Source: a virus (taxonomy: Duplodnaviria; Caudoviricetes). Taken from it: a stretch of 31,563 nt of DNA. The notes beneath the pieces are model-generated. The model saw only the letters and a program-made list of their open reading frames with translations. It was not told the DNA's origin and made no database searches. The stretch lies in IMG/VR virus record IMGVR_UViG_3300012890_000011, positions 1 to 31,563 of that record. One strand, written 5' to 3'. The position numbers were made by a program, and so were the translations under genes. This document shows, piece after piece, positions 2,205-28,819 of the stretch (positions within the stretch are counted from its first letter, which is position 1; each line of letters begins with the position of its first letter).

Positions 2205-2920
2205 CGCTCTTCCCGTGGCTCGCCGCCCGGGCGAAGCCCGAGCCTGAACCGCCGGACGACGACGACGCGGACGAGGGGCAAGCGGTCTCGAAAGAGGAGC
2301 GCCGCCACTACCTCCTCGCCTTCCGGCTCATGCGGAAGGAGACGGACCGCCGCGTCGTCGAGCTGACGCGCCTTCTCTCCACCGGAGACCTGGACTCGCG
2401 CGAATGGGCCGAGGCTTTCCGAAAGGAGCTTCGCGCCGCCCACTCGGAAGCATGGGCGATCGGGCGAAGGCTGGCCGGCCATGTCGGCGCGGTCGGCGAG
2501 GACGACGTCGCCGCCGGTCTCGCCGCCTGGGATCGCCAGGAGCGATTCTTCACAAGGTTCCTGGCCGACGTGGAGAGCGGCCGCTACACGAAGAAGGCGG
2601 AAGAGGGCGAGGACGCGGCGCTGAACGAGAAGGCGGTCAACGATCGCTCCCTCAAGTACGTCGCGTCGGTCAAGGGCACCGCCCACGAGTCGTTCCGGGT
2701 CGCCCTAAGGGATGAGCCGACGAACTGGAACCTCGGCCTCTCGGCGCACTGCAAGCCGTCGAAGTCGCATCCCTACGACTGTCCGAGTCTCGCCGGGCAG
2801 AGCCCGAAGCCCGCCGACGAATGGCCCACCGCCCCCGGCCGTGGTGAATGTCCGTGCGGGGGCAACTGCACGTGCTTCCTGTCGACGGTGGACGGAAGCC
2901 ACAGCACCGAAGGGATCTAA
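2201..2920 (+). CDS. Minor head / head morphogenesis protein (Mu gpF / SPP1 gp7-like)
   Basis: TTG start overlaps the portal stop (TTGA), in frame with ORF 1583..2920; C-terminal W..G..HC...C...PG.G.C.C..NC.C cysteine pattern; position after portal. Confidence 0.75.
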   Translation: MTLFPWLAARAKPEPEPPDDDDADEGQAVSKEERRHYLLAFRLMRKETDRRVVELTRLLSTGDLDSREWAEAFRKELRAAHSEAWAIGRRLAGHVGAVGEDDVAAGLAAWDRQERFFTRFLADVESGRYTKKAEEGEDAALNEKAVNDRSLKYVASVKGTAHESFRVALRDEPTNWNLGLSAHCKPSKSHPYDCPSLAGQSPKPADEWPTAPGRGECPCGGNCTCFLSTVDGSHSTEGI

Positions 2921-2932
2921 GGCTTTGTCCGC

Positions 2933-3220
2933 CTAAGCGCTGGAGCCCTGCTCGAATCGATCAAGCACTTTTTCCGCCCACTCGCGCTCCTGGAACGCAT
3001 CGCCGAACTCGGGGTTCTTCGATGGAACGGTCCGGATGCGGGCGTTGGTCGCGTCCTTGACCGGAAACCACGCGGTTACGATCCGTCCATTTCGGATTCG
3101 CGCCTTGCCGATAAAACGGTTACCCGGAACGTCGATCGCTCGTACGAGCATCTTCCCACCCTTCGGCACGGATGATGAGCCCGTCGCGTGGTTCACGAAG
3201 ACCCCATAGCGGTCGTCCAT
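2933..3220 (-). CDS. Hypothetical 95-aa protein, antisense moron
   Basis: Fills the gap between gpF and the protease; lower GC; protein-like composition; TAAACT 5 nt before the ATG. Confidence 0.55.
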   Translation of the reverse strand: MDDRYGVFVNHATGSSSVPKGGKMLVRAIDVPGNRFIGKARIRNGRIVTAWFPVKDATNARIRTVPSKNPEFGDAFQEREWAEKVLDRFEQGSSA

Positions 3221-3241
3221 AGCTCAGTTTACATATTGCTG

Positions 3242-3281
3242 CGGCCCCGCCTCCCTCCTGGGACGCGGGGCCGTTCTCGTT
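3242..3281 (+). terminator. GC hairpin with pyrimidine tail, putative intrinsic terminator
   Basis: cggccccgc(ctccc-tcct-gggac)gcggggccg followed by ttctcgtt. Confidence 0.55.
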
Positions 3282-3297
3282 CGGACGGACACCTCTT

Positions 3298-3366
3298 ATG
3301 AAATCTAACTGCACCCACGATCTAGCCGGTCAGACGGTCGGCCTTCTCGACGGTGAGGGCTCGTGA
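3298..3366 (+). CDS. 22-aa mini-ORF MKSNCTHDLAGQTVGLLDGEGS, resembling the gpF C-terminus
   Basis: ATG at 3298; TGA overlaps the GTG of the protease ORF (GTGA); NCT..L...EG pattern shared with the gpF end. Confidence 0.4.
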   Translation: MKSNCTHDLAGQTVGLLDGEGS

Positions 3367-5063
3367 GCCCCGCCGCTGTATCCGGGATGGACCTGCTGGA
3401 CCTTGCGAGGATGCACAGCGCCGTTTGGGCCATCGAGAACGGCTATGCCCAAGGCGCTCTGACCTACCTGACCGAGACCCAGTACGAGGCCCACATGGCG
3501 GCTTACGAAGCTCGCGTCGCCGCGCCCGCCCCGGTTCCCAACCGCGTTCGCCCGGAGGACCGGATGTACGCCATCGAGGGCGGCGTCGCCATGATCCCGA
3601 TCAACGGCGTCATGACGATGAAGCCCACGAGCTTCGGCGGCTGCTCGACGATCCTGACCCGCCGAGCGGTCCGGATGGCGTCGATCGACCAGGACGTGAA
3701 GTCCATCGTGCTCCTCGTCAACAGTCCCGGCGGAACCGTCGAAGGCACCGAGGAACTCGCCCTCGTCGTCGGTGAGGCGGCGAAGCTCAAGAACGTCACC
3801 TCGTACATCCAGGGCGGCTGTCACAGCGCCGCCTTCTGGGTCTCCGTCTACTCTTCCAGGATCGTTTCCCACCGCCTAGCCCTCTGCGGCTCGATCGGCG
3901 CGATGAACTCGATCCAGGACACGAGCGAGCAGGCGGCGAAGGAAGGGCGCAGGACGATCCTCGTCGCGAGCCGACCGCTCAAGGGTCAGGGGACGCCCGG
4001 CGTTCCCGTCAGCCCGGAGGCGGTGAAGATGCTGGAGGGGCATATCCAGTACTTCGGCGACGCCTTCGACCAGGTCGTGCTCAGCAACCGAAAGCTGACC
4101 GCCGCCCAGGCCAAGGAGGCGTTCACCGGCGGGACGTTCACCGCGCCCGACGCCCTGCGCCTCGGCCTCATCGACGCGATCCAGCCTTTCGACGAGGTCA
4201 TGGCGGAGCTTCAGGAGAGCGCGGTCACGGTGGACGACGTCGAGCCCGACGTCTCCGACGGCGAGATCCGCGACCGAGCGGGGCGCCCGAAGGTCGGCGT
4301 TCCGACCGACCCTCAGCGCGAGGCGAGCGCCCTCCTCGCCAGCCTCGCGCTGCGACCCACGATTTCCGCCCGCGAGGGCGGCGACGCGCGCCCTCGCGCG
4401 GAGAATCCCAGGCCCAACGGGGCCCCAGAGAACACCATGAGCGACCAGCCAAGCAACTGGAAGAACCGACTGGCCGATGCCTTCCGCTCGCGCGGGAAAA
4501 GCATCGTAGCCTCCAATCTCGACAACACGACGCGCGAGGACCCGGATCACATCTCCCGCGTGATCACCGAGTCGATCGACGCCCAGGTGGCCGATCACCT
4601 CGCCAACGATCCGCTCTCCCGAGCGGTCGGCGCGCGCAACATCCGCTCCGTCGAGGACCTGAACGCGATGGCGGCCCACGCGGCTATCGGCGAACGTCTC
4701 CTGAACAAAACCCGCGCGGAGACCCACCGCCTCGCGGTCGTCGCCTTCGGCGAGGTCAACGGCCCTCGCTTCTCGGCGTCGGTCGATCACCTCCCCTACG
4801 ACCAGGCGGTCGAGATGTGCGAGTCCTTCCGCGCCCAGGCGGGTGAGGCGTTCGAGACGACGCCGACCCAGCCCGCAAGCCGTCGGACCGTGCCGACCGA
4901 CCCCACCGCTCGCGGCAAGGACGCGACGGAGAACCCGAATCGGGCCTTCGACAAGCTCGACGCCACCGCGAAGGCGATGGTGATCGCCCGCGCCCCCGAC
5001 GACGAGAAGCGACAGGACGCTCTCGCCGCCGAGTACCTCAAGTCCATCCAGGAGATCGAATAA
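3363..5063 (+). CDS. S49 (SppA / lambda gpC-like) prohead protease with C-terminal scaffold region
   Basis: VNSPGGTVEG, CHSAAFW (catalytic Ser), GSIGA and ALRLGLIDAIQPFDEV motifs; start is GTG 3363 or ATG 3387. Confidence 0.9.
   Translation: MSPAAVSGMDLLDLARMHSAVWAIENGYAQGALTYLTETQYEAHMAAYEARVAAPAPVPNRVRPEDRMYAIEGGVAMIPINGVMTMKPTSFGGCSTILTRRAVRMASIDQDVKSIVLLVNSPGGTVEGTEELALVVGEAAKLKNVTSYIQGGCHSAAFWVSVYSSRIVSHRLALCGSIGAMNSIQDTSEQAAKEGRRTILVASRPLKGQGTPGVPVSPEAVKMLEGHIQYFGDAFDQVVLSNRKLTAAQAKEAFTGGTFTAPDALRLGLIDAIQPFDEVMAELQESAVTVDDVEPDVSDGEIRDRAGRPKVGVPTDPQREASALLASLALRPTISAREGGDARPRAENPRPNGAPENTMSDQPSNWKNRLADAFRSRGKSIVASNLDNTTREDPDHISRVITESIDAQVADHLANDPLSRAVGARNIRSVEDLNAMAAHAAIGERLLNKTRAETHRLAVVAFGEVNGPRFSASVDHLPYDQAVEMCESFRAQAGEAFETTPTQPASRRTVPTDPTARGKDATENPNRAFDKLDATAKAMVIARAPDDEKRQDALAAEYLKSIQEIE
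4437..5063 (+). CDS. Probable nested scaffolding protein (lambda Nu3-like internal start)
   Basis: In-frame ATG (gagaacaccATG AGC GAC) after a disordered linker; helical acidic C-terminal part; known lambda C/Nu3 arrangement. Confidence 0.5.
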   Translation: MSDQPSNWKNRLADAFRSRGKSIVASNLDNTTREDPDHISRVITESIDAQVADHLANDPLSRAVGARNIRSVEDLNAMAAHAAIGERLLNKTRAETHRLAVVAFGEVNGPRFSASVDHLPYDQAVEMCESFRAQAGEAFETTPTQPASRRTVPTDPTARGKDATENPNRAFDKLDATAKAMVIARAPDDEKRQDALAAEYLKSIQEIE

Positions 5064-5492
5064 ATGGCTGCTGCCTCTATCGACCGCGACGGTCTCCGCA
5101 AGGACGCCGACCTCGTCGCCTTTCCCATGGCGGCCAGCACGAAGGTCTACAACGACACTCTCGTGTTCAACCTGGGCGGAACCGGCTTCGTCGGTCCCGC
5201 CCGAACCGGAAACGCCAACGACCTGTTCGCAGGCGTCGCCCAGGGCGGCGTCGACAACTCGAACGGCGTCGCCGGCGCGAAGAAGGCCCGCCTCAAGCGC
5301 AACGGCTCCTTCGCCTTCGCCATCGCCGTAGCGCCCACCCCCGCGCTCAACGGCCAGCCCGCCTACGCGGCGGACGACTCGACCGTGACCGCCACCGCTA
5401 CCGGCGCGATCAAGGTCGGCACGTTCATCTACGACGAGCAGCTCGCCCCCGCGGGCCTCGTCCGGGTGGACGTCTCCAAGGGGGTCGCCTAA
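5064..5492 (+). CDS. Head decoration / capsid cement protein (DUF2190-like)
   Basis: 142 aa, Ala/Gly-rich; FAGVA, G.PAYAADD.TVT and IKVG motifs; between scaffold and capsid. Confidence 0.75.
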   Translation: MAAASIDRDGLRKDADLVAFPMAASTKVYNDTLVFNLGGTGFVGPARTGNANDLFAGVAQGGVDNSNGVAGAKKARLKRNGSFAFAIAVAPTPALNGQPAYAADDSTVTATATGAIKVGTFIYDEQLAPAGLVRVDVSKGVA

Positions 5493-5495
5493 GCC

Positions 5496-6398
5496 ATGAT
5501 CACCGCCGCACAACTCGCCTTCATCAAGACGGAGGTCCGCGACGAGCTTCGCGAGGCCTTCCGCGCCAAGCCCGCCGACGACCTTCTGTATCCGAAGATC
5601 GCCCTCAACGTCCCGACCAAGTCGAAGACGAACAAGTTCAGCGGGCTGGGCGCGCGCCCCGGCTTCAAGCTGCTTGAGGACCGCATGGCGGCCGAGCGGA
5701 TGAACCAGTACCCGTACGAGCTGACCGACAGGACGTACTACGACCTCATCACCATCGAGCGCGAGGCCATCGAGGACGACGCCACCGGACAGTTCGTCGC
5801 CGACGCCAGGCGCATCGGCGAGGGCGCGAACCCGTTCCGCGAGCAGCAGACCGTCAACCTCCTCGTGAACGGCCGCACGGGCATCTGCTACGACGGCCAG
5901 CCGTTCTTCAACGGCCAGCACAAGGGCGGGGTGCTCAACGCGCCCGGCCAGACCGTCCTTCAGACCAACGTCGCCACGGACGTCCTGTCGGCGGGGAACC
6001 TGGAAAAGGCCCTCGGCATCATCGGCAACTGGGTCGACGACAAGGGCAATCCCTTCGGCCTGCTCCCGGACACCCTTCTGGTCGGCGCGGGCAACCTCGT
6101 GAAGGCGTCCGACCTCCTGCGCAACGACCTGGTGGGCAAGACGACGCTCAACAGCATCCTCCAGCCCCGGGCGTCGGCGCTCGTTCCGGGCAACGCCTGG
6201 TTCCTGCTCTACACGCGCGGAGCGAAGCCGCTCATCCGCACCTACCGCACCGATATCGGCGAGAACGGCCTCGACCTGAACGATAACATCGGCAGTCGGG
6301 ACGCGTGGTCGAAGGGGGAGTGGGAGATCGGCGCCCGCATCCGCGAGGCGTACGGCTACGGCCCGTGGTGGACTGGGTACGGGAGCTTCCCCGCGTGA
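5496..6398 (+). CDS. Major capsid protein, Mu gpT-like
   Basis: ITIEREAIEDD..G, CYDGQPFF...H, PDTLLVG, AWFLL...KPLI and R.AYGYGPW..GYGS motifs of the Mu-like gpT family. Confidence 0.92.
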   Translation: MITAAQLAFIKTEVRDELREAFRAKPADDLLYPKIALNVPTKSKTNKFSGLGARPGFKLLEDRMAAERMNQYPYELTDRTYYDLITIEREAIEDDATGQFVADARRIGEGANPFREQQTVNLLVNGRTGICYDGQPFFNGQHKGGVLNAPGQTVLQTNVATDVLSAGNLEKALGIIGNWVDDKGNPFGLLPDTLLVGAGNLVKASDLLRNDLVGKTTLNSILQPRASALVPGNAWFLLYTRGAKPLIRTYRTDIGENGLDLNDNIGSRDAWSKGEWEIGARIREAYGYGPWWTGYGSFPA

Positions 6399-7147
6399 TC
6401 GCCGTCTGGACGGTCACGGGGAAACCCATGCTCGTCGGCAAGGCGGTCCTCGACCCGATCGTGCCGACCCTCTTCAACGAGCTTCCCGAGGAGGTCGCGT
6501 TCCAGGCCGTCAACCTGCGCATCGAGGAGGTTTCGGGGCCGAGTTCCCCGAGCCTCGGCGGCGGCGCGTGGCGGGACGAGGACGGCGAGACGCACGGGTC
6601 ATCCTCCGATGTCTCCGAGGAGGTTCCCGCCGGCATCACGATCGAGGCGTACGACGCCCTGGTCTCCGAGCGCGACACCCTCCGCACCCAGCTCACCAAG
6701 ATTCACGGGGATCTCAACGAAGCGAGGCTGAGGGCCAACCCTTCCGACGAGGATCTTGGCGAGGTCGCCAAGGAACGGGGCTTCGTGCTCGTCAGCGATC
6801 GCGACCACGACACGCTCACCCAGGCGATCGTCGACCTGACGAGCGAGCGGGACGCGGCCCGGACCGATCTCGCGGAGGCGAACGATGCAAAGGCGGCTGC
6901 CGAAGGCCAGATCGGGGATCTTCGGACCCAGATCGAGTCCTCTGCCGCCGAACTCGCTCCGACGCCCCCGCCCGTGGATCCGAACCCCGCGCTCATGGAG
7001 GCGATCGACGCCGTGCTCGCCGCCTCGGCGACGACGCTCGAGCGTCTTCCGGAAGATGCGCTCGGGAAGCTCGCCAAGCTGAAGGGGATCGACCCGATGC
7101 CCGACAGCAAGGCGAAGCTCGTGGAGGCGCTCAAACCGGCCGGGTAG
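6395..7147 (+). CDS. Acidic coiled-coil protein with C-terminal Rho-N/HeH-like helical module
   Basis: GTG overlaps the capsid stop (GTGA); heptad segments; C-terminal LGKLAKLKGIDPMPDSKAKLVEAL. Confidence 0.65.
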   Translation: MIAVWTVTGKPMLVGKAVLDPIVPTLFNELPEEVAFQAVNLRIEEVSGPSSPSLGGGAWRDEDGETHGSSSDVSEEVPAGITIEAYDALVSERDTLRTQLTKIHGDLNEARLRANPSDEDLGEVAKERGFVLVSDRDHDTLTQAIVDLTSERDAARTDLAEANDAKAAAEGQIGDLRTQIESSAAELAPTPPPVDPNPALMEAIDAVLAASATTLERLPEDALGKLAKLKGIDPMPDSKAKLVEALKPAG

Positions 7148-7162
7148 GGCCGAGAAGGCCCT

Positions 7163-7657
7163 ATGCCCGACTTCTCCCCCGTCTATCCGTGGATCCGGCT
7201 CTGTCTCCAGGACAGCGCGCCGGAGACCGGGCCTTTCGCCATCGCCAACGCCTACTTCGATCCAACGATCAAGAGCGCGCTGCGGGACTCCGTTCCTAAG
7301 GCGGCGATCGTCAAGGCGGGGCTGGTCGATTCCGGCGCTTTCTTCGACGCTTTGGTGGGCGACGACAAAGACCGGCTCGCCGAGGCGGTCGGGCTGCTCG
7401 TCGCCGCCCGCCTCATCCGCCCCCTGACCACGGGCGGCGCCAACGGGCATCTTCTCTCCGAGAAGACGGAACAGGTCTCCCGCACCTTCGCCGCCGGTCC
7501 CGGCAGCAAGGAGGAGTGGGAGACCCGCGCCAAGGACCTGATCGAAGAGTGCGCGTTCTTCGAGGTGGCCGACACTCCCGCTTTGGTCGGCGGCCTGGTC
7601 ATCGACGCCGCCGGTCCCTCTCGCGGCAGGTACGAGTCGCGCTGGAGGGACGATTGA
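7163..7657 (+). CDS. Probable head-tail connector / adaptor
   Basis: 164 aa, helical, AVGLLVAARL; called mainly on synteny. Confidence 0.6.
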   Translation: MPDFSPVYPWIRLCLQDSAPETGPFAIANAYFDPTIKSALRDSVPKAAIVKAGLVDSGAFFDALVGDDKDRLAEAVGLLVAARLIRPLTTGGANGHLLSEKTEQVSRTFAAGPGSKEEWETRAKDLIEECAFFEVADTPALVGGLVIDAAGPSRGRYESRWRDD

Positions 7658-8049
7658 GCGCCGCCGCCCGGCGGTTCACCGGGCTTAGGGGCCGCCTCAC
7701 CGGGGGCGGCTTCGACAAGTGGTGTCGGATCGAGACGCCACCGGCCGGGGAGCCTGAGCCGAACGGCGCGGGTGGGTGGCTAGAGCCCACCCCGGACGTC
7801 CAGGAGAACATCGCCTGCCAAGTGAGATTCCCGCGATCCAACCCCACGTCGCCCGAAGGCGAGGCGGCTCAGACCACCTTGCAGCGGGTGGAGATCCGCT
7901 TGCCCGTGGGCACCCCCGTCTCGGTCGAGTCCCGCATCCTCATCGGTGAAGAGGCCTATGTGGTCCAGGGACACGACACCGGACGATCCTACGCCTCGGA
8001 GATCGTCTGCGACTGCCTCCGCGCGAACGACGGCGAAGCATCCCCATGA
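7654..8049 (+). CDS. Head closure / stopper protein (SPP1 gp16-like)
   Basis: TTG overlaps the upstream stop, GGAGGGA upstream; beta-rich pattern C.I...G.GGW...NIACQV...IRLPVGT.V...RI.IG..Y.V. Confidence 0.7.
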   Translation: MSAAARRFTGLRGRLTGGGFDKWCRIETPPAGEPEPNGAGGWLEPTPDVQENIACQVRFPRSNPTSPEGEAAQTTLQRVEIRLPVGTPVSVESRILIGEEAYVVQGHDTGRSYASEIVCDCLRANDGEASP

Positions 8050-8147
8050 AGATCATCCGTGCATGGTGCGGCGAAACGCCGCTCATCGTCATCGAGGGCG
8101 TCGTGTACCTCCCCTCGCTCACCTACCGACTGCCAGTGCAACCATGA
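8046..8147 (+). CDS. 33-aa microprotein MKIIRAWCGETPLIVIEGVVYLPSLTYRLPVQP
   Basis: ATGA overlaps with both neighbours; exactly fills the gap. Confidence 0.55.
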   Translation: MKIIRAWCGETPLIVIEGVVYLPSLTYRLPVQP

Positions 8148-8458
8148 AGATCAGAGTTCTGCGAAACTTCGGCCTCGACGGGGAAAACCTCGAAGCGGGC
8201 ACGATCGTAACCGTCAATCGCTCCCACTTCGGGGACAACGTCGACACCTTCCAAAACGAGGGCTACTTCGAGGAGGTCGTCGAAGAGACCGCCACCGGCG
8301 CCAAACCGAAGAAGGCCGAGGCGACCAAAAAGCCCGCGACCTCCAAGAAGAAGGGGAAAGCCACCGTGCCCCCCTCGATCCCTGCCGATGTCCCGGCGCC
8401 GTCCGAGCCGCCTACGGAGCCCGCCGCGGAGGCCCCCGTTGCTGTCGATCAAGCTTGA
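8144..8458 (+). CDS. Small virion-associated hypothetical protein with Lys/Pro/Ala-rich tail
   Basis: MKIRVLRNF...G..LEAG.IV N-terminus typical of small head-region proteins; in frame with ORF 7946..8458. Confidence 0.65.
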   Translation: MKIRVLRNFGLDGENLEAGTIVTVNRSHFGDNVDTFQNEGYFEEVVEETATGAKPKKAEATKKPATSKKKGKATVPPSIPADVPAPSEPPTEPAAEAPVAVDQA

Positions 8459-8861
8459 GACGGCGACCCTCGACGCTCTCCCTAAACAGGTCGCCTTGAT
8501 CGCGCTGGAGGTCACGCTCGCGGGGGCCACGGCCACGGCTCAGGACGCGCGGCGGCGGGTCGAGACCCAGGTCGGCTCAGGCGTCCAGTACCCCGGACTG
8601 CCCAACCGGTCGTCCGCTGCGGGCGAATCGCCGGTGAACCAGTCGGGCGACCTTCTCGGGACCATCGGCACGGACCAGGACGGCGTCTCTGGCATCGGCG
8701 CCGACGCGGTTGCGGGCGACGGCTCCGGGAAGGCTCTCGCGCTCGAAGCGGGCACGTCGAACATGGATCCGCGTCCCTTCATGGGACCGGCCTCCGAGGT
8801 CGGGAAGGAAGCGGCAGAGGCCGCGCTGAGCAAGGCGGGCAAGACGCTCGGAAGGATCTAG
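8439..8861 (+). CDS. HK97 gp10-like tail completion protein
   Basis: S.AGESP..QSGDL..TI and LEAGTSNMDPRPFMGPA motifs; TTG start preceded by GGAGG. Confidence 0.85.
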   Translation: MLSIKLETATLDALPKQVALIALEVTLAGATATAQDARRRVETQVGSGVQYPGLPNRSSAAGESPVNQSGDLLGTIGTDQDGVSGIGADAVAGDGSGKALALEAGTSNMDPRPFMGPASEVGKEAAEAALSKAGKTLGRI

Positions 8862-9344
8862 ATGGCAGCGGGACAGCCCTATCTCGAAAGCGACGGCGAC
8901 ACCTTCCTCTACGAGACGCTCTCGTTCGACCCGCTCCTCAAGCGGTGGTTTCCGGGCGGGGTGACGGGGGAGAAGCCGGGCGAGGGCGCTCTAAGGCCGA
9001 CCATCCGTTACTGGCGTCAGTCGCCCGGGACGGACAAGCCCCGGCAGGACGGGAGGATGGGGCGAGCGCTCTCCTCGCCGACCTACGTCCTGGTCTGCCT
9101 CGACCGGCAGGCGGGCGGCTCCGACAAGGTCTACGGCACGATCGGCGGCAAGCTGACCCCGCGCCAACCCCTGTTGCAGATGGGGCAGAGACGCCTCTAC
9201 GACCTGCTCCACGGGCGGACCTTCCAGCACGGCGGCTTCGAGTACGAGGTCTCGTGCAACCCGGAGTACTCCATCACCGAGCCGACCGCCCAGGGCACCC
9301 GCGACGTCCAGGTGGGGTGGTGGGTCCGCATGAACGTCCAGTAG
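8862..9344 (+). CDS. Probable tail terminator protein
   Basis: Between gp10-like gene and tail tube; LYETL..D..L and P.IRY pattern. Confidence 0.6.
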   Translation: MAAGQPYLESDGDTFLYETLSFDPLLKRWFPGGVTGEKPGEGALRPTIRYWRQSPGTDKPRQDGRMGRALSSPTYVLVCLDRQAGGSDKVYGTIGGKLTPRQPLLQMGQRRLYDLLHGRTFQHGGFEYEVSCNPEYSITEPTAQGTRDVQVGWWVRMNVQ

Positions 9345-9350
9345 CCTCTC

Positions 9351-12296
9351 ATGTCCACCATCATCGGTTCCTACAGCCTCGACGTCCCGGCGACGGCGGC
9401 CTGGACCATCGGACCGACCTTCAAGCGAGGCGAGCTCGTCCGCGTCGTAGCGGGCGGGTCCGTACGCTGGAAAAGGACCTCGAGCGGCGGGGGCGATTCT
9501 CTCCCGGACCACGATCGAAGCTGGAACTTCGGCTGTACCCAGTCGCAGCCCGGCGACGTGCCGTGGGCGATCACATCGGGCGGCCCCGGCCTCGCGAGCG
9601 CGTCGTTGCCTCCGACGAAGACCTCGTACTGGCTCAGGCCCGCCGCCGCCTCTCAAGCGACCGGGGGCACGATCCCGGACGGCGCGACGGTCACCGGGGT
9701 CCAGCTCGACTTCATCCTGAGCGCGTCGGCGGAGTCGTCGGGCGGGTCGTTCACCGGCTACACCCCGACCTACGGCTACGAGAACACCGCTCCCGGACTG
9801 CCCGTGTGGCACTCGGTCGTCGGCTCGACGGACACGCCGATCGCCACGGGATACACCCAGAACCCCGCCTTTCAGCCCACCGTCAACCCTGCCCTCAAGG
9901 GGGTCGACGCGGCCTACTGCTACTTCCTCGCCAGCGGGGCGCAAGGGAACGGGGCGGACTTCCAGCTCGGCCAGTTCGACGCCCCCGCGAATTCGGCCTA
10001 TCCCGCGAACTCGACGGTAAGGGTCCGCGTCAAGGCTCCGTCGGGGTCTGGAATCGCCATCGTGACGCAGTACGGCGGGTCGATGAACGGAGCCGCCGAC
10101 CCGCCGATCTCCTACACGGCGACGGGCGACTGGCAGGAGATCGACCACCCGATCAAGCGGGCGATGACCGACGCCGCCACCCAGCTCTATCTCGCCGTAA
10201 GCCCCGCCGCGACCGGAACGACCTACCTCGACCAGGTCGCCTTGAGGAAGACGAACGCGCCCGTCGCCGAGGGGGCAAACCAAGCCGACACGAGCGCCGT
10301 GGCGACGGACGCGCCGATCGCGGACGGCGATCTCACCGCCGTGTTCGACGCGACGTTCGGGGTCTCGCAGATCGGCTCGACCGGCGTCGTCCCCGTCGCG
10401 GGCGGATCGTCGACCGTGACCCTCGGCGGTCCCGGCGAGACGTTCGGTCGGACGTGGACGGCGGCGAACGCCTCCTCTCTGGGTTGGGACGCGCGGGGCT
10501 TCAACTCGCTCACGAGCGGCACGAACCGGACCCTCGCCCTCCTGGGGGTGAACGCGACGTTCTACGTGAGCGGCGGGGAGACCTTCTCCTACTCGTACGC
10601 GCTCCCCGAGGGCGCGTACCCCTCGGACTTTCCCGAGGTCCACCTCTACGAGCCCGGGGCGGTCCTGCAGGCCGACGCTTGGCCCGGTTCGGCCCTGGTG
10701 GCGAGCGGGCGCCCGCCTCTGTCTCTCGCGATGCTCATCCTGCCAGACGGGCAGACGCCGCCCTTCGCCGCGACGTCCGGGTGTCTCTCGCCCTTGCGGC
10801 GAGGGACCTACGACGCGGAGACCGGGCTCGGCGCGACCGAACCGAACCTCTTCTACCGGCTCTGGTTCGTCGTCAACGACGGGCTGGGCGACTTCTCCGA
10901 CGACCAGGGCGGCTACTCCGTCCTCATCGAACGCATCCGAACCACGACCATGAGTCTCCCCCTCGAATCCCTCGTCTCTCCCCGCTTCGGTCTCCAGACC
11001 GGCGTGGGCGTCCGTTCCGACGTGTTCCGGATGCTCGGCTGCATCGCGGACAAGGGTTTCAAGCCCAAGCCCGACCAGCAGTGGGAGGAGAGCGGCACGG
11101 CAGGCTTCGGCTACCAGACCGACTCGAACCTCATCTACGACGTCTCCAACGGCGACGTGACCCTCAACCTCGACACCCTCGACACGGGCTACGTGCTCTA
11201 CTCCGTCTTCGGCGGCGAGAAGGTCACGACCCTCGCGCCGGGCGTCTACAAGCACGACTTCGAGTTCGACGTCTTCACCCAGGCGATCGCGCCCGCCTAC
11301 AGCGCGCAGACCCCCACCGAGGCAGGCGAGATCGCCCAGGCCATGATGGACCTGATCTTCAACGGCTTCAAGCTGAGCGCCGACCCCGGCAAGCTGCCGA
11401 CCGCCTCCAGCGCGTTCATCGCGGGCAAGCTGAACCTCACCGGGGACGCGGATATGCCCACGCTGTCCTCAGGCGTCAGCGCGGTCCAGGTGGTCAGCGT
11501 GAACGGCAACCCGACGAGCGGCACGTTCGTCCTGCTCGACCACACCAAGGCGTCGGGGATCGTCAACACGACCGACGTCGCCAGCGCGGTCCAGACGGCG
11601 GTGCGGCTGCTCGGCAACGACTACGCCAACGCGACCGTCGCGGGCAGCGCGGGAGCCTGGACGATCACCAGCCCGACCGGCAAGCGGCTCGCGCCCCTCG
11701 TGCCCGACTACACGGACGCCGGGAACCAGAGCACGCTCGTGGGCGGCACCGCCCCGACGGTCACCGTCGCGGTCACCAACCCCGGCGGCTTCAAGATCAA
11801 TCCGGTGGCGCGGTGCGGAGCCCAGTCCTGGTGCGTGAAGGTCGCGCCGACCTGGACGGCCATGGAGAACGCCCCGATCGTGATGACGGACAACTGGAGC
11901 TCCAACGTCACGATCGGCGAGCGGTACGTCCGGAAGTGGATCCAGGGCTGCTCGCCCGGCGCCTTCACCTACAACCAGAAGGACGGTAAGGACATCGTGG
12001 ACACCATGGAGCTGGAGATGGCCCTGGTCGATCCGGTGCGGACCTTCCTCAGCGCCGCGCGTTCCGGCCAGCGGCTTTGCGCGCGGCTCCTGTCCACCGG
12101 AGCCCAGATCGGCGCGACGGCCTATAAGCGGTCGATGACGATCGACATGGACGGTCAGGCGAAGTGGCCGGACAACACCGACAGCGACAACGTCCGGTCG
12201 GTGAAGATCGACTTCCGCGCCCTCTACAACATCGCCTCAGGACAAATGTTGAGGATCTCTTTGGTTAATGAACTGGCGTCGTACGCGACGAACTGA
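9351..12296 (+). CDS. 981-aa fusion: N-terminal lectin/carbohydrate-binding region plus C-terminal major tail tube protein
   Basis: One uninterrupted ORF; aa 534-981 has tail-tube features (FGLQT..G, G.YKH.F, isLVN..ASY end); N-terminal part has LecA-like and CBM-like motifs. Confidence 0.75.
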   Translation: MSTIIGSYSLDVPATAAWTIGPTFKRGELVRVVAGGSVRWKRTSSGGGDSLPDHDRSWNFGCTQSQPGDVPWAITSGGPGLASASLPPTKTSYWLRPAAASQATGGTIPDGATVTGVQLDFILSASAESSGGSFTGYTPTYGYENTAPGLPVWHSVVGSTDTPIATGYTQNPAFQPTVNPALKGVDAAYCYFLASGAQGNGADFQLGQFDAPANSAYPANSTVRVRVKAPSGSGIAIVTQYGGSMNGAADPPISYTATGDWQEIDHPIKRAMTDAATQLYLAVSPAATGTTYLDQVALRKTNAPVAEGANQADTSAVATDAPIADGDLTAVFDATFGVSQIGSTGVVPVAGGSSTVTLGGPGETFGRTWTAANASSLGWDARGFNSLTSGTNRTLALLGVNATFYVSGGETFSYSYALPEGAYPSDFPEVHLYEPGAVLQADAWPGSALVASGRPPLSLAMLILPDGQTPPFAATSGCLSPLRRGTYDAETGLGATEPNLFYRLWFVVNDGLGDFSDDQGGYSVLIERIRTTTMSLPLESLVSPRFGLQTGVGVRSDVFRMLGCIADKGFKPKPDQQWEESGTAGFGYQTDSNLIYDVSNGDVTLNLDTLDTGYVLYSVFGGEKVTTLAPGVYKHDFEFDVFTQAIAPAYSAQTPTEAGEIAQAMMDLIFNGFKLSADPGKLPTASSAFIAGKLNLTGDADMPTLSSGVSAVQVVSVNGNPTSGTFVLLDHTKASGIVNTTDVASAVQTAVRLLGNDYANATVAGSAGAWTITSPTGKRLAPLVPDYTDAGNQSTLVGGTAPTVTVAVTNPGGFKINPVARCGAQSWCVKVAPTWTAMENAPIVMTDNWSSNVTIGERYVRKWIQGCSPGAFTYNQKDGKDIVDTMELEMALVDPVRTFLSAARSGQRLCARLLSTGAQIGATAYKRSMTIDMDGQAKWPDNTDSDNVRSVKIDFRALYNIASGQMLRISLVNELASYATN
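10950..12296 (+). CDS. Major tail tube protein, probable internal start MSLPLESLVSP
   Basis: In-frame ATG in a cc-ATG context like other starts here; precedes the tail chaperones. Confidence 0.6.
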   Translation: MSLPLESLVSPRFGLQTGVGVRSDVFRMLGCIADKGFKPKPDQQWEESGTAGFGYQTDSNLIYDVSNGDVTLNLDTLDTGYVLYSVFGGEKVTTLAPGVYKHDFEFDVFTQAIAPAYSAQTPTEAGEIAQAMMDLIFNGFKLSADPGKLPTASSAFIAGKLNLTGDADMPTLSSGVSAVQVVSVNGNPTSGTFVLLDHTKASGIVNTTDVASAVQTAVRLLGNDYANATVAGSAGAWTITSPTGKRLAPLVPDYTDAGNQSTLVGGTAPTVTVAVTNPGGFKINPVARCGAQSWCVKVAPTWTAMENAPIVMTDNWSSNVTIGERYVRKWIQGCSPGAFTYNQKDGKDIVDTMELEMALVDPVRTFLSAARSGQRLCARLLSTGAQIGATAYKRSMTIDMDGQAKWPDNTDSDNVRSVKIDFRALYNIASGQMLRISLVNELASYATN

Positions 12297-12561
12297 ATAC
12301 AGGGAGCGTCAGCATCCACGGGCCCAGTGACTTAAAGGGCCGGAAAGCCACAAAATCCTGAGCCCAGCCAAACCGTTTTGTGGCACAGACGATCCTAGCA
12401 GAGCTTCTTGGGTTCATCAAGGCGCAAGGTCCACCTCACGATAAGGGCCAAACGCCAGGAATATTTAAGTTCTTGTACCAAAAAACGTAAACTGATGTTT
12501 TAAAATAGGAACGTCTCAAGGTGGGTGCCGTCAGCGGACCTCCATCGAGCAAGGAAGAATT
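12297..12561 (+). promoter_or_regulatory. AT-rich region, probable promoter of the lectin moron
   Basis: Sharp GC drop, A-tracts, TAAAAT at 12501-12506, AAGGAAG before ATG 12562. Confidence 0.45.
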
Positions 12562-13089
12562 ATGAGCAATGGCTTCGACAATCGCTTCGTGATCCTCGCG
12601 TACTCACCCGCTGCTGGGCAGGCTGTCACCTATAACGGCTCGTCCAATACGGAGCTTACGTTGCAGGATTATGACTGGTCAAATCCTGTACCCGACAACC
12701 AAGCGTGGCAGCTGGTGCCACAGGAGAACACAGGAGGCTCCTCAAACAACTGGGGATTCGCTCTCGTGAACCTCGCCACGGGGAACGCTATGTCGGCCAA
12801 CGGCAACGCTGCCGCTCCTCTCAGCATGGTGGAGTTTGCCTTTCGATCAACTAACTTCGACACCTTCGGCCTCATTGCCACTGGTCCGGCCTACCTGTCC
12901 TATGCGATTCAGAGCAACTCCAGCCCCAACCTCTGGTGGGGGGATGCGAACGGGAGCTATAACGTGGGCGATCCGGTCTCGCTCGTCGCCACGACGACGC
13001 CTTTCGAATGGCTCCTCCTCCCTTGTGCGGACTACCTACCCGGCAGAAGCGAAGAGGACGCGATGCAGAGAGTTCGCCGACGCACTTGA
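12562..13089 (+). CDS. Ricin-B / beta-trefoil lectin-like protein (moron)
   Basis: NQAWQL (QxW), FALVNLATG.AM, three-fold beta pattern ending FEWLL; lower GC3; no signal peptide. Confidence 0.7.
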   Translation: MSNGFDNRFVILAYSPAAGQAVTYNGSSNTELTLQDYDWSNPVPDNQAWQLVPQENTGGSSNNWGFALVNLATGNAMSANGNAAAPLSMVEFAFRSTNFDTFGLIATGPAYLSYAIQSNSSPNLWWGDANGSYNVGDPVSLVATTTPFEWLLLPCADYLPGRSEEDAMQRVRRRT

Positions 13090-13114
13090 AGCAAGCCCAC
13101 CCCGAAACTCTCCC

Positions 13115-13160
13115 GCGAGGGCCGCGACTCCAGACCGGAGTCGCGGCCCTCGCCCCTTTT
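13115..13160 (+). terminator. 17-bp perfect hairpin, putative terminator
   Basis: gcgagggccgcgactcc-agacc-ggagtcgcggccctcgc followed by ccctttt. Confidence 0.7.
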
Positions 13161-13169
13161 CCCGATCCT

Positions 13170-13217
13170 ATGTCCACTCTAATCGTCAACGAAATCCCAA
13201 GCTACGCCACCAACTAA
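13170..13217 (+). CDS. 15-aa mini-ORF MSTLIVNEIPSYATN, copy of the tail tube C-terminus
   Basis: 8/11 aa identical to LVNELASYATN (12261-12296); stop lies 1 nt before the chaperone ATG. Confidence 0.55.
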   Translation: MSTLIVNEIPSYATN

Positions 13218-13218
13218 G

Positions 13219-13707
13219 ATGAGCAAGACCACCCCCGCCCCCAACCTCGTCAACTTCGCCCAGCTCCGTGTGGACGGACAGCGCACCGTGGAGGTGAAGG
13301 TGCGCGGCAACGTCGTCCGCGTCACTGAGAGGCTCGAGGACGATTCCACCGTGGACAAGGAGATCGGACGCGCGCGCCTCACCGCCCAGCGCGGCACCCG
13401 GGCCGCGCAGGCCCTTCTGGCGACGTCGACCGACAACCCGGACGAGAAGCAGGCCCGAGAGGCGGAACTCGCTAGGGCCACGGCCTCCATGGACGCGCTA
13501 AACGTGGCGGTGACCTTCGACCGGCGGCGGATCGTCTGCAAGCGGATCGAGAGCAGGTTCGTCGAGTGGAACATCGTCGGCCCTGACAACAGGGCGCTTC
13601 CGCTCGACTTCGACGGGCTCTACGACGGTCCTCTCGGGACGACCACGCTCGAAGAGATCTTCCAGACGGTCCAGGAAGAGCCCTTCGTGGGGGAAGCGAG
13701 CGCCTAG
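13219..13707 (+). CDS. Tail assembly chaperone (gpG-like)
   Basis: Between tube and tape measure; VEWNIVGPD..ALP motif; ends with slippery GGGGGAA. Confidence 0.8.
   Translation: MSKTTPAPNLVNFAQLRVDGQRTVEVKVRGNVVRVTERLEDDSTVDKEIGRARLTAQRGTRAAQALLATSTDNPDEKQAREAELARATASMDALNVAVTFDRRRIVCKRIESRFVEWNIVGPDNRALPLDFDGLYDGPLGTTTLEEIFQTVQEEPFVGEASA
13689..13695 (+). other. Programmed -1 ribosomal frameshift site G GGG GAA
   Basis: Correctly phased in the last codons of the chaperone; the -1 frame is open for 94 codons. Confidence 0.8.
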
Positions 13708-13976
13708 CCCTTCAGGAGTGGATCTACCGCCGACTGAAGGAGTCTAGGCTTCCTGACTACACCGGCCCGGAGGAAAGGCTATGGTGCTTCCTCCCGGGCT
13801 GGGTCCGCTACTTCTGGCGTGCCCGCGAGATGAAAGGCGCGGTCACGCTCTGGGAGCTGATGGACATGAGCTATTCGCCGGGGATGGGCCGCGCGGTCAC
13901 CGCGATGGCCGACGCTCTCGCCTCGGCCGAGAACGCGGCGCAGGCGGCGTTCAGCAAGGAAAAGGACGGCAAGTAA
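13692..13976 (+). CDS. gpT-like extension of the frameshifted gpGT chaperone (GSERLALQEWIY...AFSKEKDGK)
   Basis: Open -1 frame from the slippery site to TAA 13976; not in the supplied ORF track. Confidence 0.78.
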   Translation, partial: GSERLALQEWIYRRLKESRLPDYTGPEERLWCFLPGWVRYFWRAREMKGAVTLWELMDMSYSPGMGRAVTAMADALASAENAAQAAFSKEKDGK

Positions 13977-14107
13977 AACGACATGACGCCTAGTTACATA
14001 GGTAAGGGAACAAAAGTACTATCTAAAAAAATTTATTAATTAGTGCCTTCGTTGTCGGAAAAACTGTCGTAATATCTGTTACAGAAGCGATTAAACGACG
14101 CTTCAGT
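13977..14107 (+). promoter_or_regulatory. Very AT-rich region, probable promoter of the accessory cassette
   Basis: ctaaaaaaatttattaatta plus TTGTCG/TAATAT-like hexamers; exact boxes not assigned. Confidence 0.45.
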
Positions 14108-14368
14108 ATGAGCAACATGGCAGATTCAACCTACAGCCCAACCAACATCGAATCCGGCGGCAGCGCTCCCTATCCGGCAGGAACGATCGCTTCTTGCACG
14201 ACGGCGTACTCGAGCGGATCCGGTACCCCTTCGGCCAAGATCACCAACAACGGCACGACGTCAACGATCACGGAGTTCCCCCACACGGACGTCGGCATCA
14301 CGACGGCTTACACCGTCTACAACTCGAGCCAAGGCGAGGTCGATCTCCTCGTTACGCCCTCTAACTGA
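14108..14368 (+). CDS. Hypothetical 86-aa Ser/Thr-rich beta protein
   Basis: Coding-like codon usage after the AT-rich region; no family recognised. Confidence 0.65.
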   Translation: MSNMADSTYSPTNIESGGSAPYPAGTIASCTTAYSSGSGTPSAKITNNGTTSTITEFPHTDVGITTAYTVYNSSQGEVDLLVTPSN

Positions 14369-14508
14369 GGCGCCCTGAGTCGGCAAGGGCTGGGATATCT
14401 TTCCCCGCCCTTCCACGACCGATGCGCAAGACGCGTTCCATGCGCGTTCGATAGGAAGACGCCTTCGGATCGGCCTTCGCCAATATCCGTCCCGAACCCA
14501 GAGACAAC

Positions 14509-15033
14509 ATGTCAGACCAACAGACCTCCACTCCTTCGCCCAACCCTGGTTACCAGTGCCAGATGGCCTTCGTCGCCGAGCAGCTCCTCTTGGGGGCCTT
14601 GACCAGCAACGACCCGACGTACACGAGCAACTTCTACAACGCCATGGCCCCGTTCTTCGCCATGTCGGGATACGCGCTCTCGCCCTACCAGTTCGTCGAC
14701 TTCGACAAGTTCGCCAAGAGCGACGAGGTGGGCCTCAGCGCCCACTTCACGCGTGTACTCGGAGGCGAGAAGCTTACTGAAGTGGACTTCCCGAGTCTCA
14801 AGTGCGCGGCCTGCAAAGTCTCCTCGTACGCGGTCGCGGGCTTGATCGTCGCCGCCGGGGCGGCGGCCCTCTCCTACCTGACCGTGGGCTCCTCTATCGT
14901 CATCGCCTTGGCCGGCATCGCGGGGGTCTCGCTCGAAGCCGCTCTGGCGTTTGCGGTGACCCTCGGCGGCGTGGTCTCAGGAGGAGTTGGAAAGGTCGTC
15001 GAGGCGATCTGCGAATGGGTCGGCGTCTGTTAG
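14509..15033 (+). CDS. Putative precursor of a halocin C8 / saposin-like hydrophobic peptide
   Basis: C-terminal 76 aa: CAACK, then Gly/Ala/Val hydrophobic helices, then ICEWVGVC. Confidence 0.55.
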   Translation: MSDQQTSTPSPNPGYQCQMAFVAEQLLLGALTSNDPTYTSNFYNAMAPFFAMSGYALSPYQFVDFDKFAKSDEVGLSAHFTRVLGGEKLTEVDFPSLKCAACKVSSYAVAGLIVAAGAAALSYLTVGSSIVIALAGIAGVSLEAALAFAVTLGGVVSGGVGKVVEAICEWVGVC

Positions 15034-15289
15034 ACACTGAGAAGCCTAGGGATTGAGCCAATCGTTTCGCACGCATTGTGCAAAAAGGTGATGAACGTTC
15101 GTTAGGGGTTCATCGCCCTTTCCATCGAAATGGAGCTCAATCCGCGTTCGACAAAGAGAAGGCCGGAACTTAGCCTCTTCCACCCTTAAGATGTTTAACC
15201 CTACGATTACAACCTGGCGTCGCGCAATTGATCTCATAGATGGGCGATGGTGGACGTCATCCGGACGTGTCAGTGATTGGGAGTAATGT

Positions 15290-15703
15290 ATGATAAGATC
15301 AACGATGCACTATCCTATCAAAGCACCTGCCAATCTTTTCACCTGCGAGTTGACCCTCGTTAGCCCAGGGTTGAACCTTGGTGTCCGCTTCGATAGCAAC
15401 GAGAGCAACACGACCTACGGCGGTTCGCTGCTCGTGAACGGGCCTGTTAGCGTCGCTCCGATCGTGGTCGGCATCTGGGACGGCGACGGCGACGTGTTCT
15501 TTACGCTGTACGATCTCCAGGATGGAGCGGTCGGCGAGTCGGTCTCCAGCCTCGTAATCGACGCGGGGGCGGGAGGCGTCCCCGCCACCCCGTATGTGAA
15601 GGTGTTCAGCCATAGCGGACTTGCGTGCGACGTCGTTCAGACTGGCGGAGATCCCGTCACCAACGCTCTCAAGTACACCCTCACTGTTAGCGTGGCCCCG
15701 TAA
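15290..15703 (+). CDS. Hypothetical acidic beta-rich protein
   Basis: Clean ORF, start at 15290 or 15305; no family recognised. Confidence 0.65.
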   Translation: MIRSTMHYPIKAPANLFTCELTLVSPGLNLGVRFDSNESNTTYGGSLLVNGPVSVAPIVVGIWDGDGDVFFTLYDLQDGAVGESVSSLVIDAGAGGVPATPYVKVFSHSGLACDVVQTGGDPVTNALKYTLTVSVAP

Positions 15704-15738
15704 TATCCTGCGCGGTCGAACTTAAAAGAACGAGCACC

Positions 15739-16170
15739 ATGGCCAACACCTCCAACTACACCTTCAATATCTCCCTGCTTGACGGCATGCCCCCGGTTCT
15801 TTGGCAGCCGGGCACCATGGAACTGACGGTCGTCTTCGACGACTCTTCGACGGACGTTGGCACGGTGACGGGCAGCCTCTCCGTACCCGGATGGTACTCC
15901 GAGCCATTCCCCCTCGCTGGCAAAACCGTAGGCAGCGCAGAGGCCGCGCTCGCAGTGGCCGTGACCGGCACGACCAAGGAGGGCGAGGCGGATCTGGCGG
16001 TCTCGCTTCTGGAAGATGGCTTCCTCTATAGCACGACCTACCTCGGAGGCACGGCGTCGATCTCCGACAGTGCGGCTCATGAGACCTACGCCTACGCGAT
16101 CACCGGCTACACCGGCGAGCCCGGTACTGAGCCGAAGCAGAGCCGCCATTCGCGAGCCAAGGCTTCCTGA
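15739..16170 (+). CDS. Hypothetical acidic beta-rich protein
   Basis: Clean 143-aa ORF 35 nt after the previous gene; alternating beta pattern. Confidence 0.65.
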   Translation: MANTSNYTFNISLLDGMPPVLWQPGTMELTVVFDDSSTDVGTVTGSLSVPGWYSEPFPLAGKTVGSAEAALAVAVTGTTKEGEADLAVSLLEDGFLYSTTYLGGTASISDSAAHETYAYAITGYTGEPGTEPKQSRHSRAKAS

Positions 16171-16303
16171 CCATCCATGCGGCGGCGTACCTGTGATAAG
16201 GAGAGCGCTTGTTCCTTCCTGCGCTCAGGGTCGCCACGGGCCCCTCGCCATGTCGGGGGCGAAGCGAACGGCGACCTCGGTACGACCGAGGAGCCTTTTC
16301 ACG

Positions 16304-16348
16304 AAGGCGGAGCGGACGGCCTTCAGCAAGGAAAAGAGCGCAAAGTAG
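16304..16348 (+). repeat. Diverged copy of the gpGT 3' end
   Basis: TTCAGCAAGGAAAAG exact at 13950-13964 and 16322-16336; AAQAAFSKEKDGK* versus AERTAFSKEKSAK*. Confidence 0.8.
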
Positions 16349-16394
16349 GCACTTTAGAGTTCAAGAGGATTGGATCGGCGCTAATATTTGCGCG

Positions 16395-17204
16395 ATGTTA
16401 TCGCTCCTCATAGGCGCCTTCCTCGCTCACTCGCATCAGGTCGTCTACGACGACGCCGATGCAGCTCCGATCTGGTCTGTCGACCAGGCTCTTCTTCAAA
16501 AAGCCTGGATGAAGGGATGGGAAGAGGGCAAGAAGAAAAAGGGAAACCTCGATAATCTTCTCGACTTCCTACGTACCGACATGGGACGAGTCCGATCACC
16601 TACGGGGGAACGTTGGCGCGCATCGTGCGTGATACCGTTCCCCCCATTCGCGAAGATGGAGTTGGCAGGGTTCCAGTCCGGGCGTCGATTCGAAACCTAT
16701 GAAAGCGAGGGCAAAGCTGTCGTTGAGGACGTAGCCACTCACCGGAACTCGGCTGATCGAACGATCGCCTTCGCCATCCAACTGAACGCCTGGCCAGGCC
16801 TGAGCGACTACAACGGAGACATCAATCGCCGCGCGAACCAAAAGGACGTTCGGGCATCCGACTTCGTCCTCATGATCGACGATCGTAAGATCAAGCTCAA
16901 AGACACTCTGGAAGGCGAGTCCAGCACGCTGAATGGGAGCGTAAGCGTCCCGATCACCGATACGTCGACCTCATCTGTTTCTTCAGGTGGCCGAACCTAC
17001 TCCTCGACGGTCACCTACACGACGAACCAGACTCATGGCTACGACGCGTACAGCGCGATCTACGGTTTGGTCTTCCCGTACTTCGCGCCAGATGGCAAGC
17101 CATACATCACCAAGAACACCAAAAGTATTTTTCTGCGTGTCGTGATGCCGAACGGGGTCCGAGACGTATCCCTGGATCTGGCGAAGCTCAAGACGAACCT
17201 CTAG
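16395..17204 (+). CDS. Putative exported/envelope protein (moron)
   Basis: Short hydrophobic N-terminus MLSLLIGAFLA; lower GC; in frame with ORF 16209..17204; followed by a hairpin. Confidence 0.7.
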   Translation: MLSLLIGAFLAHSHQVVYDDADAAPIWSVDQALLQKAWMKGWEEGKKKKGNLDNLLDFLRTDMGRVRSPTGERWRASCVIPFPPFAKMELAGFQSGRRFETYESEGKAVVEDVATHRNSADRTIAFAIQLNAWPGLSDYNGDINRRANQKDVRASDFVLMIDDRKIKLKDTLEGESSTLNGSVSVPITDTSTSSVSSGGRTYSSTVTYTTNQTHGYDAYSAIYGLVFPYFAPDGKPYITKNTKSIFLRVVMPNGVRDVSLDLAKLKTNL

Positions 17205-17230
17205 CCGCCCAAATCGCACCGACCTCACCC

Positions 17231-17272
17231 AGAGGGCGACCTTCGCTATGAAGGTCGCCCTCTCGTCGTTTT
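17231..17272 (+). terminator. 14-bp perfect hairpin, putative terminator
   Basis: agagggcgaccttc-gctat-gaaggtcgccctct followed by cgtcgtttt. Confidence 0.7.
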
Positions 17273-17284
17273 CACCGAACACTC

Positions 17285-28773: not shown

Positions 28774-28819
28774 GCCCCCGGCTCCTCTCTCAAGAGGAGC
28801 CGGGGGCCTTTCGTCGTTT
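28774..28819 (+). terminator. 15-bp perfect hairpin ending the structural operon
   Basis: gcccccggctcctct-ctca-agaggagccgggggc followed by ctttcgtcgttt. Confidence 0.8.

Follow-up and report, generated by a model that had tools for sequence, protein, structure and literature searches.

Probably displaced gene ends beside cargo genes in the late operon of a Fimbriimonas prophage, compared with known insertions at gene ends

Morons are cargo genes that lie between two genes adjacent in a related phage, differ from their surroundings in composition, and have their own promoter and terminator; phage morons were reportedly treated by Juhala in 2000 and Cumby in 2012. How they come to lie between late genes that are tightly coupled, and leave these intact, has long been an open question, and their entry is usually ascribed to unspecified illegitimate recombination. 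Insertions of other kinds have been described at gene ends. WHO homing elements are found at FBA1 in Torulaspora and Lachancea yeasts, and encode an endonuclease that was shown to cut sensitive alleles (PMC7282813). Prophage e14 lies in icd of E. coli beside an icdC fragment, is 15 kb long and has its own integrase and excisionase (PMC13626634). Insertion with long target duplication involves cargo without mobility genes flanked by direct repeats of more than 30 bp, some over a gene 3' end; in the table rows seen, 43-47 of 45-47 nt are identical between repeats and the cargo is restriction-modification (PMC2853133). Mycobacterial interspersed repetitive units (MIRU) are inserted elements that leave a short open reading frame (ORF) coupled to the downstream gene (PMC12548453). 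Here we describe cargo insertions in the late operon of a prophage, contained in a stretch of 31,563 nt (IMG/VR record IMGVR_UViG_3300012890_000011; the whole stretch is called the window). Behind the tail-tube gene and the chaperone gene gpGT, this cargo is followed by copies of the end of the preceding gene. These repeats probably record cassettes brought in by recombination with a diverged phage or a prophage relic, each with a replacement gene end that displaced the old end downstream.

The window corresponds to the late region of a tailed prophage. Its terminase, portal, protease, capsid, tape-measure, and tail-tip genes match PHROG families, and 20,486 of 20,486 nt are identical in a genome assigned to an uncultured Fimbriimonas sp. 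Upstream of the terminase gene, the contig is without the phage early region. The third-position GC content (GC3) of core genes is about 0.9. Overall GC content drops in three stretches (2920-3360, 12300-13200, and 13980-17280), and the cargo units have values of 0.56-0.61 compared to 0.68-0.69 for the backbone. Each gene's C-terminus was scored locally against every pre-stop peptide (22-mer) of the window, with background sets of 588 peptides for the tube, 589 for gpGT, and 592 for gpF, the latter with a further 1000 shuffles. Three of the 30 rows of the C-terminal comparison are void, two of them self-hits from misplaced ends and one on the wrong strand. Codon usage was expressed as z and compared across 23 core gene ends and 2167 overlapping interior windows. 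A first-pass annotation, made from the letters alone, had proposed copies of the preceding gene end at gpF, tube, and gpGT, and the peptides and coordinates it quoted are all present in the sequence.

The gene at 9351..12296 is assigned to the tail tube from its position and the PHROG match of its homologue in relative G134. Its end, LVNELASYATN (stop 12296), recurs behind a lectin-like insert as MSTLIVNEIPSYATN at 13170-13217 with a local score of 44, twice the maximum of 22 in the background, so the copy proposed at this place is borne out. Over 11 codons, the working end and the downstream remnant show 5 silent and 3 amino-acid differences. Because 8 of 11 residues are kept while 5 of those 8 codons differ and local alignment detects no match at the DNA level, the two copies look like homologues from two lineages and not like a fresh duplication.

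The direction of the exchange can be read from relatives. Three tube homologues with 78-85% identity end in IVNEIPSYSTN, IVSEVPSYSVN, and IVNEIPSYATN. The last 11 residues of the remnant agree with these ends at 10, 7, and 11 positions and the working end at 7, 5, and 8, and the proline of the remnant is present in the tube ends of all four close relatives. The tube end of relative G059, LRNEVPSYATM, agrees with either copy at 7 of 11 positions. An empty-allele comparison had been suggested with the original claim; G059 provides such an allele, with only 7 nt between the tube stop and the chaperone ATG. If the tube and chaperone genes of the 85%-identical relative lie on one contig of 3583 nt, 769 nt remain, less than the 922-nt insert. 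Codon usage gives a further signal: the last 21 codons of the working end have a z of -5.3, the lowest of the 23 core ends and a value as low as that of only 1 of the 2167 interior windows, and the remnant has a native z of -0.9. Foreign usage sets in at 12237, about 8 codons ahead of the duplicated part, and codons -21 to -12 have a z of -4.6. Relatives' ends, the empty allele, and codon usage together support a direction in which the downstream copy is the old end and the working end is likely the incoming one. To this extent, the earlier proposal of a replacement 3' end with the old end left downstream stands at the tube. The lectin-like cargo has no Pfam match, and the only homologue found across 175 genomes of the family is its own. 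As a separate observation, the N-terminal part of the tube ORF (window 9351-10949) is wholly different among close relatives (774-981 aa) and sits between a common start and a common block before the tube domain; it may be a variable decoration domain or a fused gene.

The end of gpGT, AAFSKEKDGK, is present in three copies with stops at 13976 (T1), 15173 (T2), and 16348 (T3). T3, TAFSKEKSAK, scores 38 and T2, NGAQSAFDKEKAGT at 15129-15173, scores 45; the background maximum is 29. An independent repeat search returned one family of three 45-nt copies spaced by 1197 and 1175 nt. The cargo before the tape-measure gene consists of three stacked units, in each of which a gene end is followed by one or two cargo genes and then by a hairpin. 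Of the earlier description, in which a four-gene insert was closed by the copy at 16348, the copy itself is real and is extended by that at 15173, but the insert is split and the tape-measure gene does not adjoin: a fifth cargo gene follows 46 nt behind the 16348 stop and the tape-measure gene starts only at 17285.

Codon z is +0.8 for T1, -5.2 for T2, and -0.8 for T3. T1 and T2 show 6 silent and 5 amino-acid differences in 14 codons, and T1 and T3 show 1 silent and 6 amino-acid differences with 35/45 nt alike; across the tube and gpGT copies, nucleotide identity is 61-78% (22/36, 29/45, and 35/45). T2 and the gpGT end of G059 have NGAQ..FD.EK in common. The array fits the idea of a replacement end. 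Since the differences between copies are largely silent, diverged phages are the likely source of the cassettes and of the replacement ends they carried. We infer from the sequences that T3 would be the decaying native end, displaced first, followed by T2, and that T1 would have been installed by a close relative. Over 58 codons, two gpGT ends in G059 differ at 11 silent and 4 amino-acid sites; they have the same downstream leader with different cargo, which shows that a donor pool of the needed shape exists. These ends lie on L105 (4100-4250) and L188 (3650-3740); their leaders are near-identical and the small proteins behind them are different and apparently secreted. The second of them (C420) was considered as a second array and is likely part of a separate degraded element. 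Also in G059, gpGT and the tape-measure gene are separated by at least 8.6 kb of cargo, spread over two contigs (L160 and L105), and the interval appears as a large hotspot. At the G/GT frameshift site (window 13687-13707), the window has five G followed by AAG, and G059 has the heptamer GGGAAAC, which we take to be a canonical frameshift form.

Chance similarity or mis-assembly is an extremely improbable source of these copies. The proposed copy at gpF, discussed below, does score within chance, and all assemblies may come from one sample. Against this, the tube and gpGT copies score above every background peptide, the relatives' ends agree with them, single Logan contigs, free of differences, run through the two tube copies and through the three gpGT copies, and the copies are too diverged to confuse an assembler. 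A joint that skips a cassette was not seen in the Logan contigs of one run, possibly the source, although contigs cannot show absence. The coordinates of all features are collected in Table 1.

Table 1. Features of the three insert regions, with window coordinates.
Feature	Position	Strand	Remarks
3' end of gpF-like head gene, native	2855..2920	+	Family terminal motif; codon z -0.22
95-aa ORF, insert behind gpF, no family match	2933..3220	-
Hairpin with tail	3241..3280	+	z -4.5; similar hairpin and tail at same place in G059
22-codon mini-ORF	3298..3366	+	Overlaps protease GTG by 4 nt
Tail-tube gene (assigned)	9351..12296	+	Assigned by position; G134 homologue matches PHROG tail families
Working tube end, likely replacement end	12237..12296	+	Foreign codon usage; begins about 8 codons upstream of duplicated part
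Lectin-like cargo, 175 aa, predicted ricin-B-type beta-trefoil	12562..13089	+	ESM Atlas features 0.94, TM 0.71-0.75
Perfect 17-bp hairpin and pyrimidine tract, likely terminator	13115..13153	+	Folding z -5.6
15-codon mini-ORF; 13182-13217 is the putative displaced original tube end	13170..13217	+	Stop 1 nt before chaperone ATG
Tail assembly chaperone G (13219-13707) and -1 frame extension GT (to 13976)	13219..13976	+	G059 with same layout
gpGT end copy 1 (T1), working end	13932..13976	+	Native codons
Unit 1 cargo: 86-aa and 174-aa ORFs, no known family, hairpin between	14108..15033	+
Hairpin closing unit 1	15087..15117	+	Weak: z -1.8 over folded segment
gpGT end copy 2 (T2)	15129..15173	+	Foreign codons; resembles G059 gpGT end
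Unit 2 cargo: 137-aa and 143-aa ORFs, no known family	15290..16170	+
Short hairpin closing unit 2	16275..16291	+	Weak: z -1.4 over folded segment
gpGT end copy 3 (T3), T1 lineage, decayed mostly by amino-acid changes	16304..16348	+	Likely oldest displaced end
Unit 3 cargo: 269-aa ORF, hydrophobic N-terminus, no known family	16395..17204	+
Terminator-like hairpin before tape-measure gene (start 17285, no coupling ORF)	17231..17263	+

A route by homologous recombination can be outlined for such cassettes. A left crossover inside the gene body would make the donor's last codons the working C-terminus, and a right junction just behind the cassette hairpin, 11-14 codons before the recipient stop, would allow the old end to survive. 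Two crossovers fit because the foreign tract starts at 12237, ahead of the duplicated part. Once a cassette is flanked by gene ends, its downstream remnant could act as a homology arm, and later rounds could reuse the junction and stack units, the newest unit being nearest the gene (T1, T2, T3). A recombinase gene would not be required, and the silent divergence of the copies would also guard the cassettes against looping out. The in-frame ATG at the tube junction may have been brought or kept by the right arm, which would create the 15-codon ORF and possibly hand ribosomes over to a chaperone gene without a Shine-Dalgarno (SD) site; this mini-ORF would likely be a by-product, possibly retained, and not a rule. 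A search for the origin of the mini-ORF ATG did not single out one source: at its beginning, the mini-ORF is similar to where the tube, portal, and tape-measure genes start, with the closest likeness to the tape-measure leader of G059, and the tube end and the 5' part of the chaperone gene have an 8-nt word in common.

A local tandem duplication over the gene end could also have come first, with cargo inserted between copies that then diverged in place. Relative G134 does have cargo-free tandem units of 111-146 nt across four late-gene ends (L121, G134:C4, at 6496-7087, 8842-9133, 9762-10043, and 11440-11793), and the likeness of T1 and T3 would be expected from this process. We consider it quite unlikely, since in G134 the whole unit including the spacer is 77-93% alike, whereas the spacers of the window are unrelated. 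Moreover, foreign codons mark the working tube end and T2 within a gene body whose GC3 is 0.94, the foreign tract reaches beyond the duplicated part, and T2 resembles the end of another lineage.

The junctions of the array invite a different explanation. The start of both T2 and T3 is the same Asn codon to within 1 nt, at a distance of 8-12 nt from the hairpin ahead. A hairpin, a TTT(C/T)C tract, and CGAA precede either copy, as in the tape-measure leader. Together with the heavily recoded ends, this would be in line with integration at a fixed site near the stop by a recombinase or a trans-acting nuclease, for which the recoded end would be immune as in the home-and-rescue of WHO, and the early region that is not on the contig leaves room for a trans-acting gene. 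Such a targeted system is nevertheless decidedly unlikely. The seven cargo proteins have no match above noise in PHROG, Pfam, NCBIfam, or PADLOC and include no integrase, nuclease, or defence family; no TnpB-family match was found in G001 or G059, and no Rfam family rises above chance in 2000-18000. The tube and gpGT targets have no site in common, the gpGT junctions have only the 4-nt CGAA in common, and the replaced tract exceeds the remnant in length. Inheritance of the junction accounts for the common site without an enzyme. As a genome-wide repeat, the junction motif gave 0 and 1 pattern matches, equal to the control. A broader version, in which a WHO-like cassette system of the late operon comprises a recoded end, cargo, hairpin, and homology arm, spreads and stacks at fixed codons without an enzyme of its own, may be driven by a trans nuclease that spares the recoded end, and keeps the displaced end as a coupling peptide where needed, is unlikely as a whole.

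Several results weigh against recombination with diverged relatives as the source of the cassettes. Neither T2 nor the foreign tube end was seen as the native end beside the same cargo in any allele, and no phage was found that could have donated the tube end, that is, one close in protein yet AT-richer in codons. Behind the tube ends of 14 relatives, three of which have inserts before the chaperone, there is no remnant (best score 21), and the region between gpGT and the tape-measure gene in G059 (at least 4.2 and 4.4 kb of cargo on two contigs) has no gpGT remnant. Gene ends are somewhat atypical anyway, with a z of -3.6 for the glycosyltransferase gene and -2.8 for the tail hub gene. The order T3, T2, T1 is read from decay and position only, and two of the four closing hairpins are weak. 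An empty gpGT allele of this lineage was not seen either.

At the junction of gpF and the protease gene, the mini-ORF MKSNCTHDLAGQTVGLLDGEGS overlaps the protease start by 4 nt and had been listed as a copy of the gpF end. Its score of 23 is reached by 1.7% of the 592 background peptides and by 13% of the 1000 shuffles, BLASTP gives no alignment with the gpF end, and DNA similarity is below the null mean. Ten aligned close gpF homologues end in [YF][ST]TxG[IL], a motif that the upstream gene has and the mini-ORF does not. The proposed remnant was therefore rejected as unproven, and the mini-ORF could still be a badly decayed relic. In G059, the same junction holds a hairpin and three small ORFs, the last of which overlaps the protease start by 4 nt. 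Since G059 has a different small ORF there, a coupled small ORF at the protease gene need not be a copy of a gene end. The window mini-ORF was also tried as a relic of this small ORF, and the score of 19 was not significant (26% of shuffles).

It had also been proposed that displaced ends are kept with a new ATG for translational coupling to the next late gene, as a general route for cargo. The setting is suitable: the operon is tightly packed, with 11 core neighbour pairs at gaps of -4 to +6 and one at 15, the chaperone gene without an SD (duplex +0.8 kcal/mol) starts 1 nt behind the mini-ORF stop, an in-frame ATG within 5 codons has a chance of about 6% here, and the protease mini-ORF overlaps by 4 nt as does the different small ORF of G059. 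As a rule, however, this is very unlikely. No structural gene directly follows either of the two gpGT remnants. The copy at 15173 lacks an ATG in frame; for the 16348 copy, the ATG at 16250 is 18 codons ahead of the copied part and sits in weakly folded sequence. The tape-measure gene also lacks an SD (-0.1) and has no coupling ORF, and likewise the tape-measure gene of G059 and the chaperone gene of G031 follow inserts without one. Short ORFs that end at the start of the next gene occur at 13217 (+1) and 3366 (-4), of which the latter is not shown to be a remnant, and not at 15173, 16348, or the tape-measure start. The premise of few clear SD sites holds for the chaperone and tape-measure genes, but several genes have SD-like sites, for example that of the capsid (-11.5). 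Because its start is predicted to be unstructured (0.73 unpaired), the chaperone gene may initiate alone. A coupling role fits only the tube/chaperone junction, as the gpGT remnants abut cargo; the chances that the tube mini-ORF contributes to chaperone coupling there seem about even, and it is doubtful that coupling is the reason why remnants are kept.

A general route was not observed outside the window prophage. In addition to the tube ends of the 14 relatives, 12 gene ends of HK97 and HK022, 5 of them before annotated morons, have no remnant (best score 18). Remnants decay, and absence bounds visibility, not history. A remnant scan of 3970 ORFs gave matches of at least 32 outside the window that looked low-complexity or paralogous, of which those in G134 and G115 alone were looked at individually. 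In the 175 genomes, the remnant had only short, weak spacer-like matches. Searches of viral contigs returned only Mu-like loci (24-33%) with the capsid query and no close relatives with the chaperone, tube, or a degenerate remnant pattern; metagenome and genome scans returned only this element, and a phylum-wide search of 401 genomes gave no further close tube. In titles and abstracts of the open-access literature, the pattern was not found for phage late operons.

Other features were seen in neighbouring loci. The tail hub gene is split (window 23816-28036). In G009, G115, and G067, the hub and an Rcc01698-like C-terminal domain are in one frame; in the window, the two are separated by repeat-rich sequence, a stop, and a glycosyltransferase-9 gene (26595-27434), and a new start at 27431, overlapping by 4 nt, opens the C-terminal part. 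The 146-nt repeat of G134 creates a 49-codon ORF from the duplicated start of the next gene, with a 4-nt overlap with the true start. At the right end of the prophage, two similar strong hairpins with a CGTCGTT tail (28774-28811 and 30337-30371) flank a host-like stretch, and the same tail is present behind the 17231 hairpin. Paralogous secreted proteins lie on either side of the prophage genes (window 30392-30970, minus strand, and L103 1639-2190); they have a carbohydrate-binding-like domain and the same C-terminal sorting-like tail.

The scars at this locus are readable, with an old end, an incoming end, and a likely order. If the remnants are short homology arms, units could be stacked at a hotspot without an integrase, and the gains of morons could be dated and put in order across many phages by a simple search for stop-anchored C-terminal copies. 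If coupling is true at the tube/chaperone junction, it would be a natural counterpart of the bicistronic trick.

Compared with morons, the tube and chaperone genes are adjacent in G059 and the cargo differs in composition from the backbone. Promoter-like sites in the cargo number 1 against 1.4 expected, and hairpins are strong at 13115 and 17231 and weak at 15087 and 16275. HK97 gp15 is annotated between the gpGT and tape-measure genes, and the window has low-GC cargo and a closing hairpin at the same late-operon junction; unlike at the 12 gene ends of HK97 and HK022, gene-end remnants are present in the window prophage. The pattern had been thought undescribed, but its replacement half is preceded by e14 icd/icdC and by WHO at FBA1, and its coupling half by MIRU. 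In WHO, an insertion swaps the gene 3' end for a diverged copy and pushes the old end downstream, the downstream fragment is a homology arm, and repeated rounds give a tandem cluster with the newest unit nearest the gene (PMC7282813); the window would follow the same scheme. The phage ends are 36-45 nt long compared to hundreds in WHO (PMC7282813); in further contrast to WHO, no nuclease is found in the seven cargo proteins, cargo is unrelated between units, and the target is a phage late operon. In e14, icd and icdC differ at 9 silent and 2 amino-acid sites in 55 codons, the repeats being alike at 153/165 nt, and here too the working end and the downstream copy differ mostly at silent sites. 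Unlike e14, the phage units are 0.9-1.2 kb long, have no integrase, and show 61-78% identity, and the foreign tract of the tube exceeds the remnant by about 8 codons, which differs from the single crossover at a common core. The repeats of 36 and 45 nt, the inserts of 0.9-1.2 kb (below 20 kb), and the missing mobility gene resemble insertion with long target duplication, and the lower identity of the copies and a cargo without a restriction-modification family set the window apart from it. MIRU are a repeat family with its own ORF, and the phage ORF is a displaced gene end, single and without a family in the 175 related genomes. On present evidence, the architecture is already known in kind, and the window presents one well-preserved locus of it.

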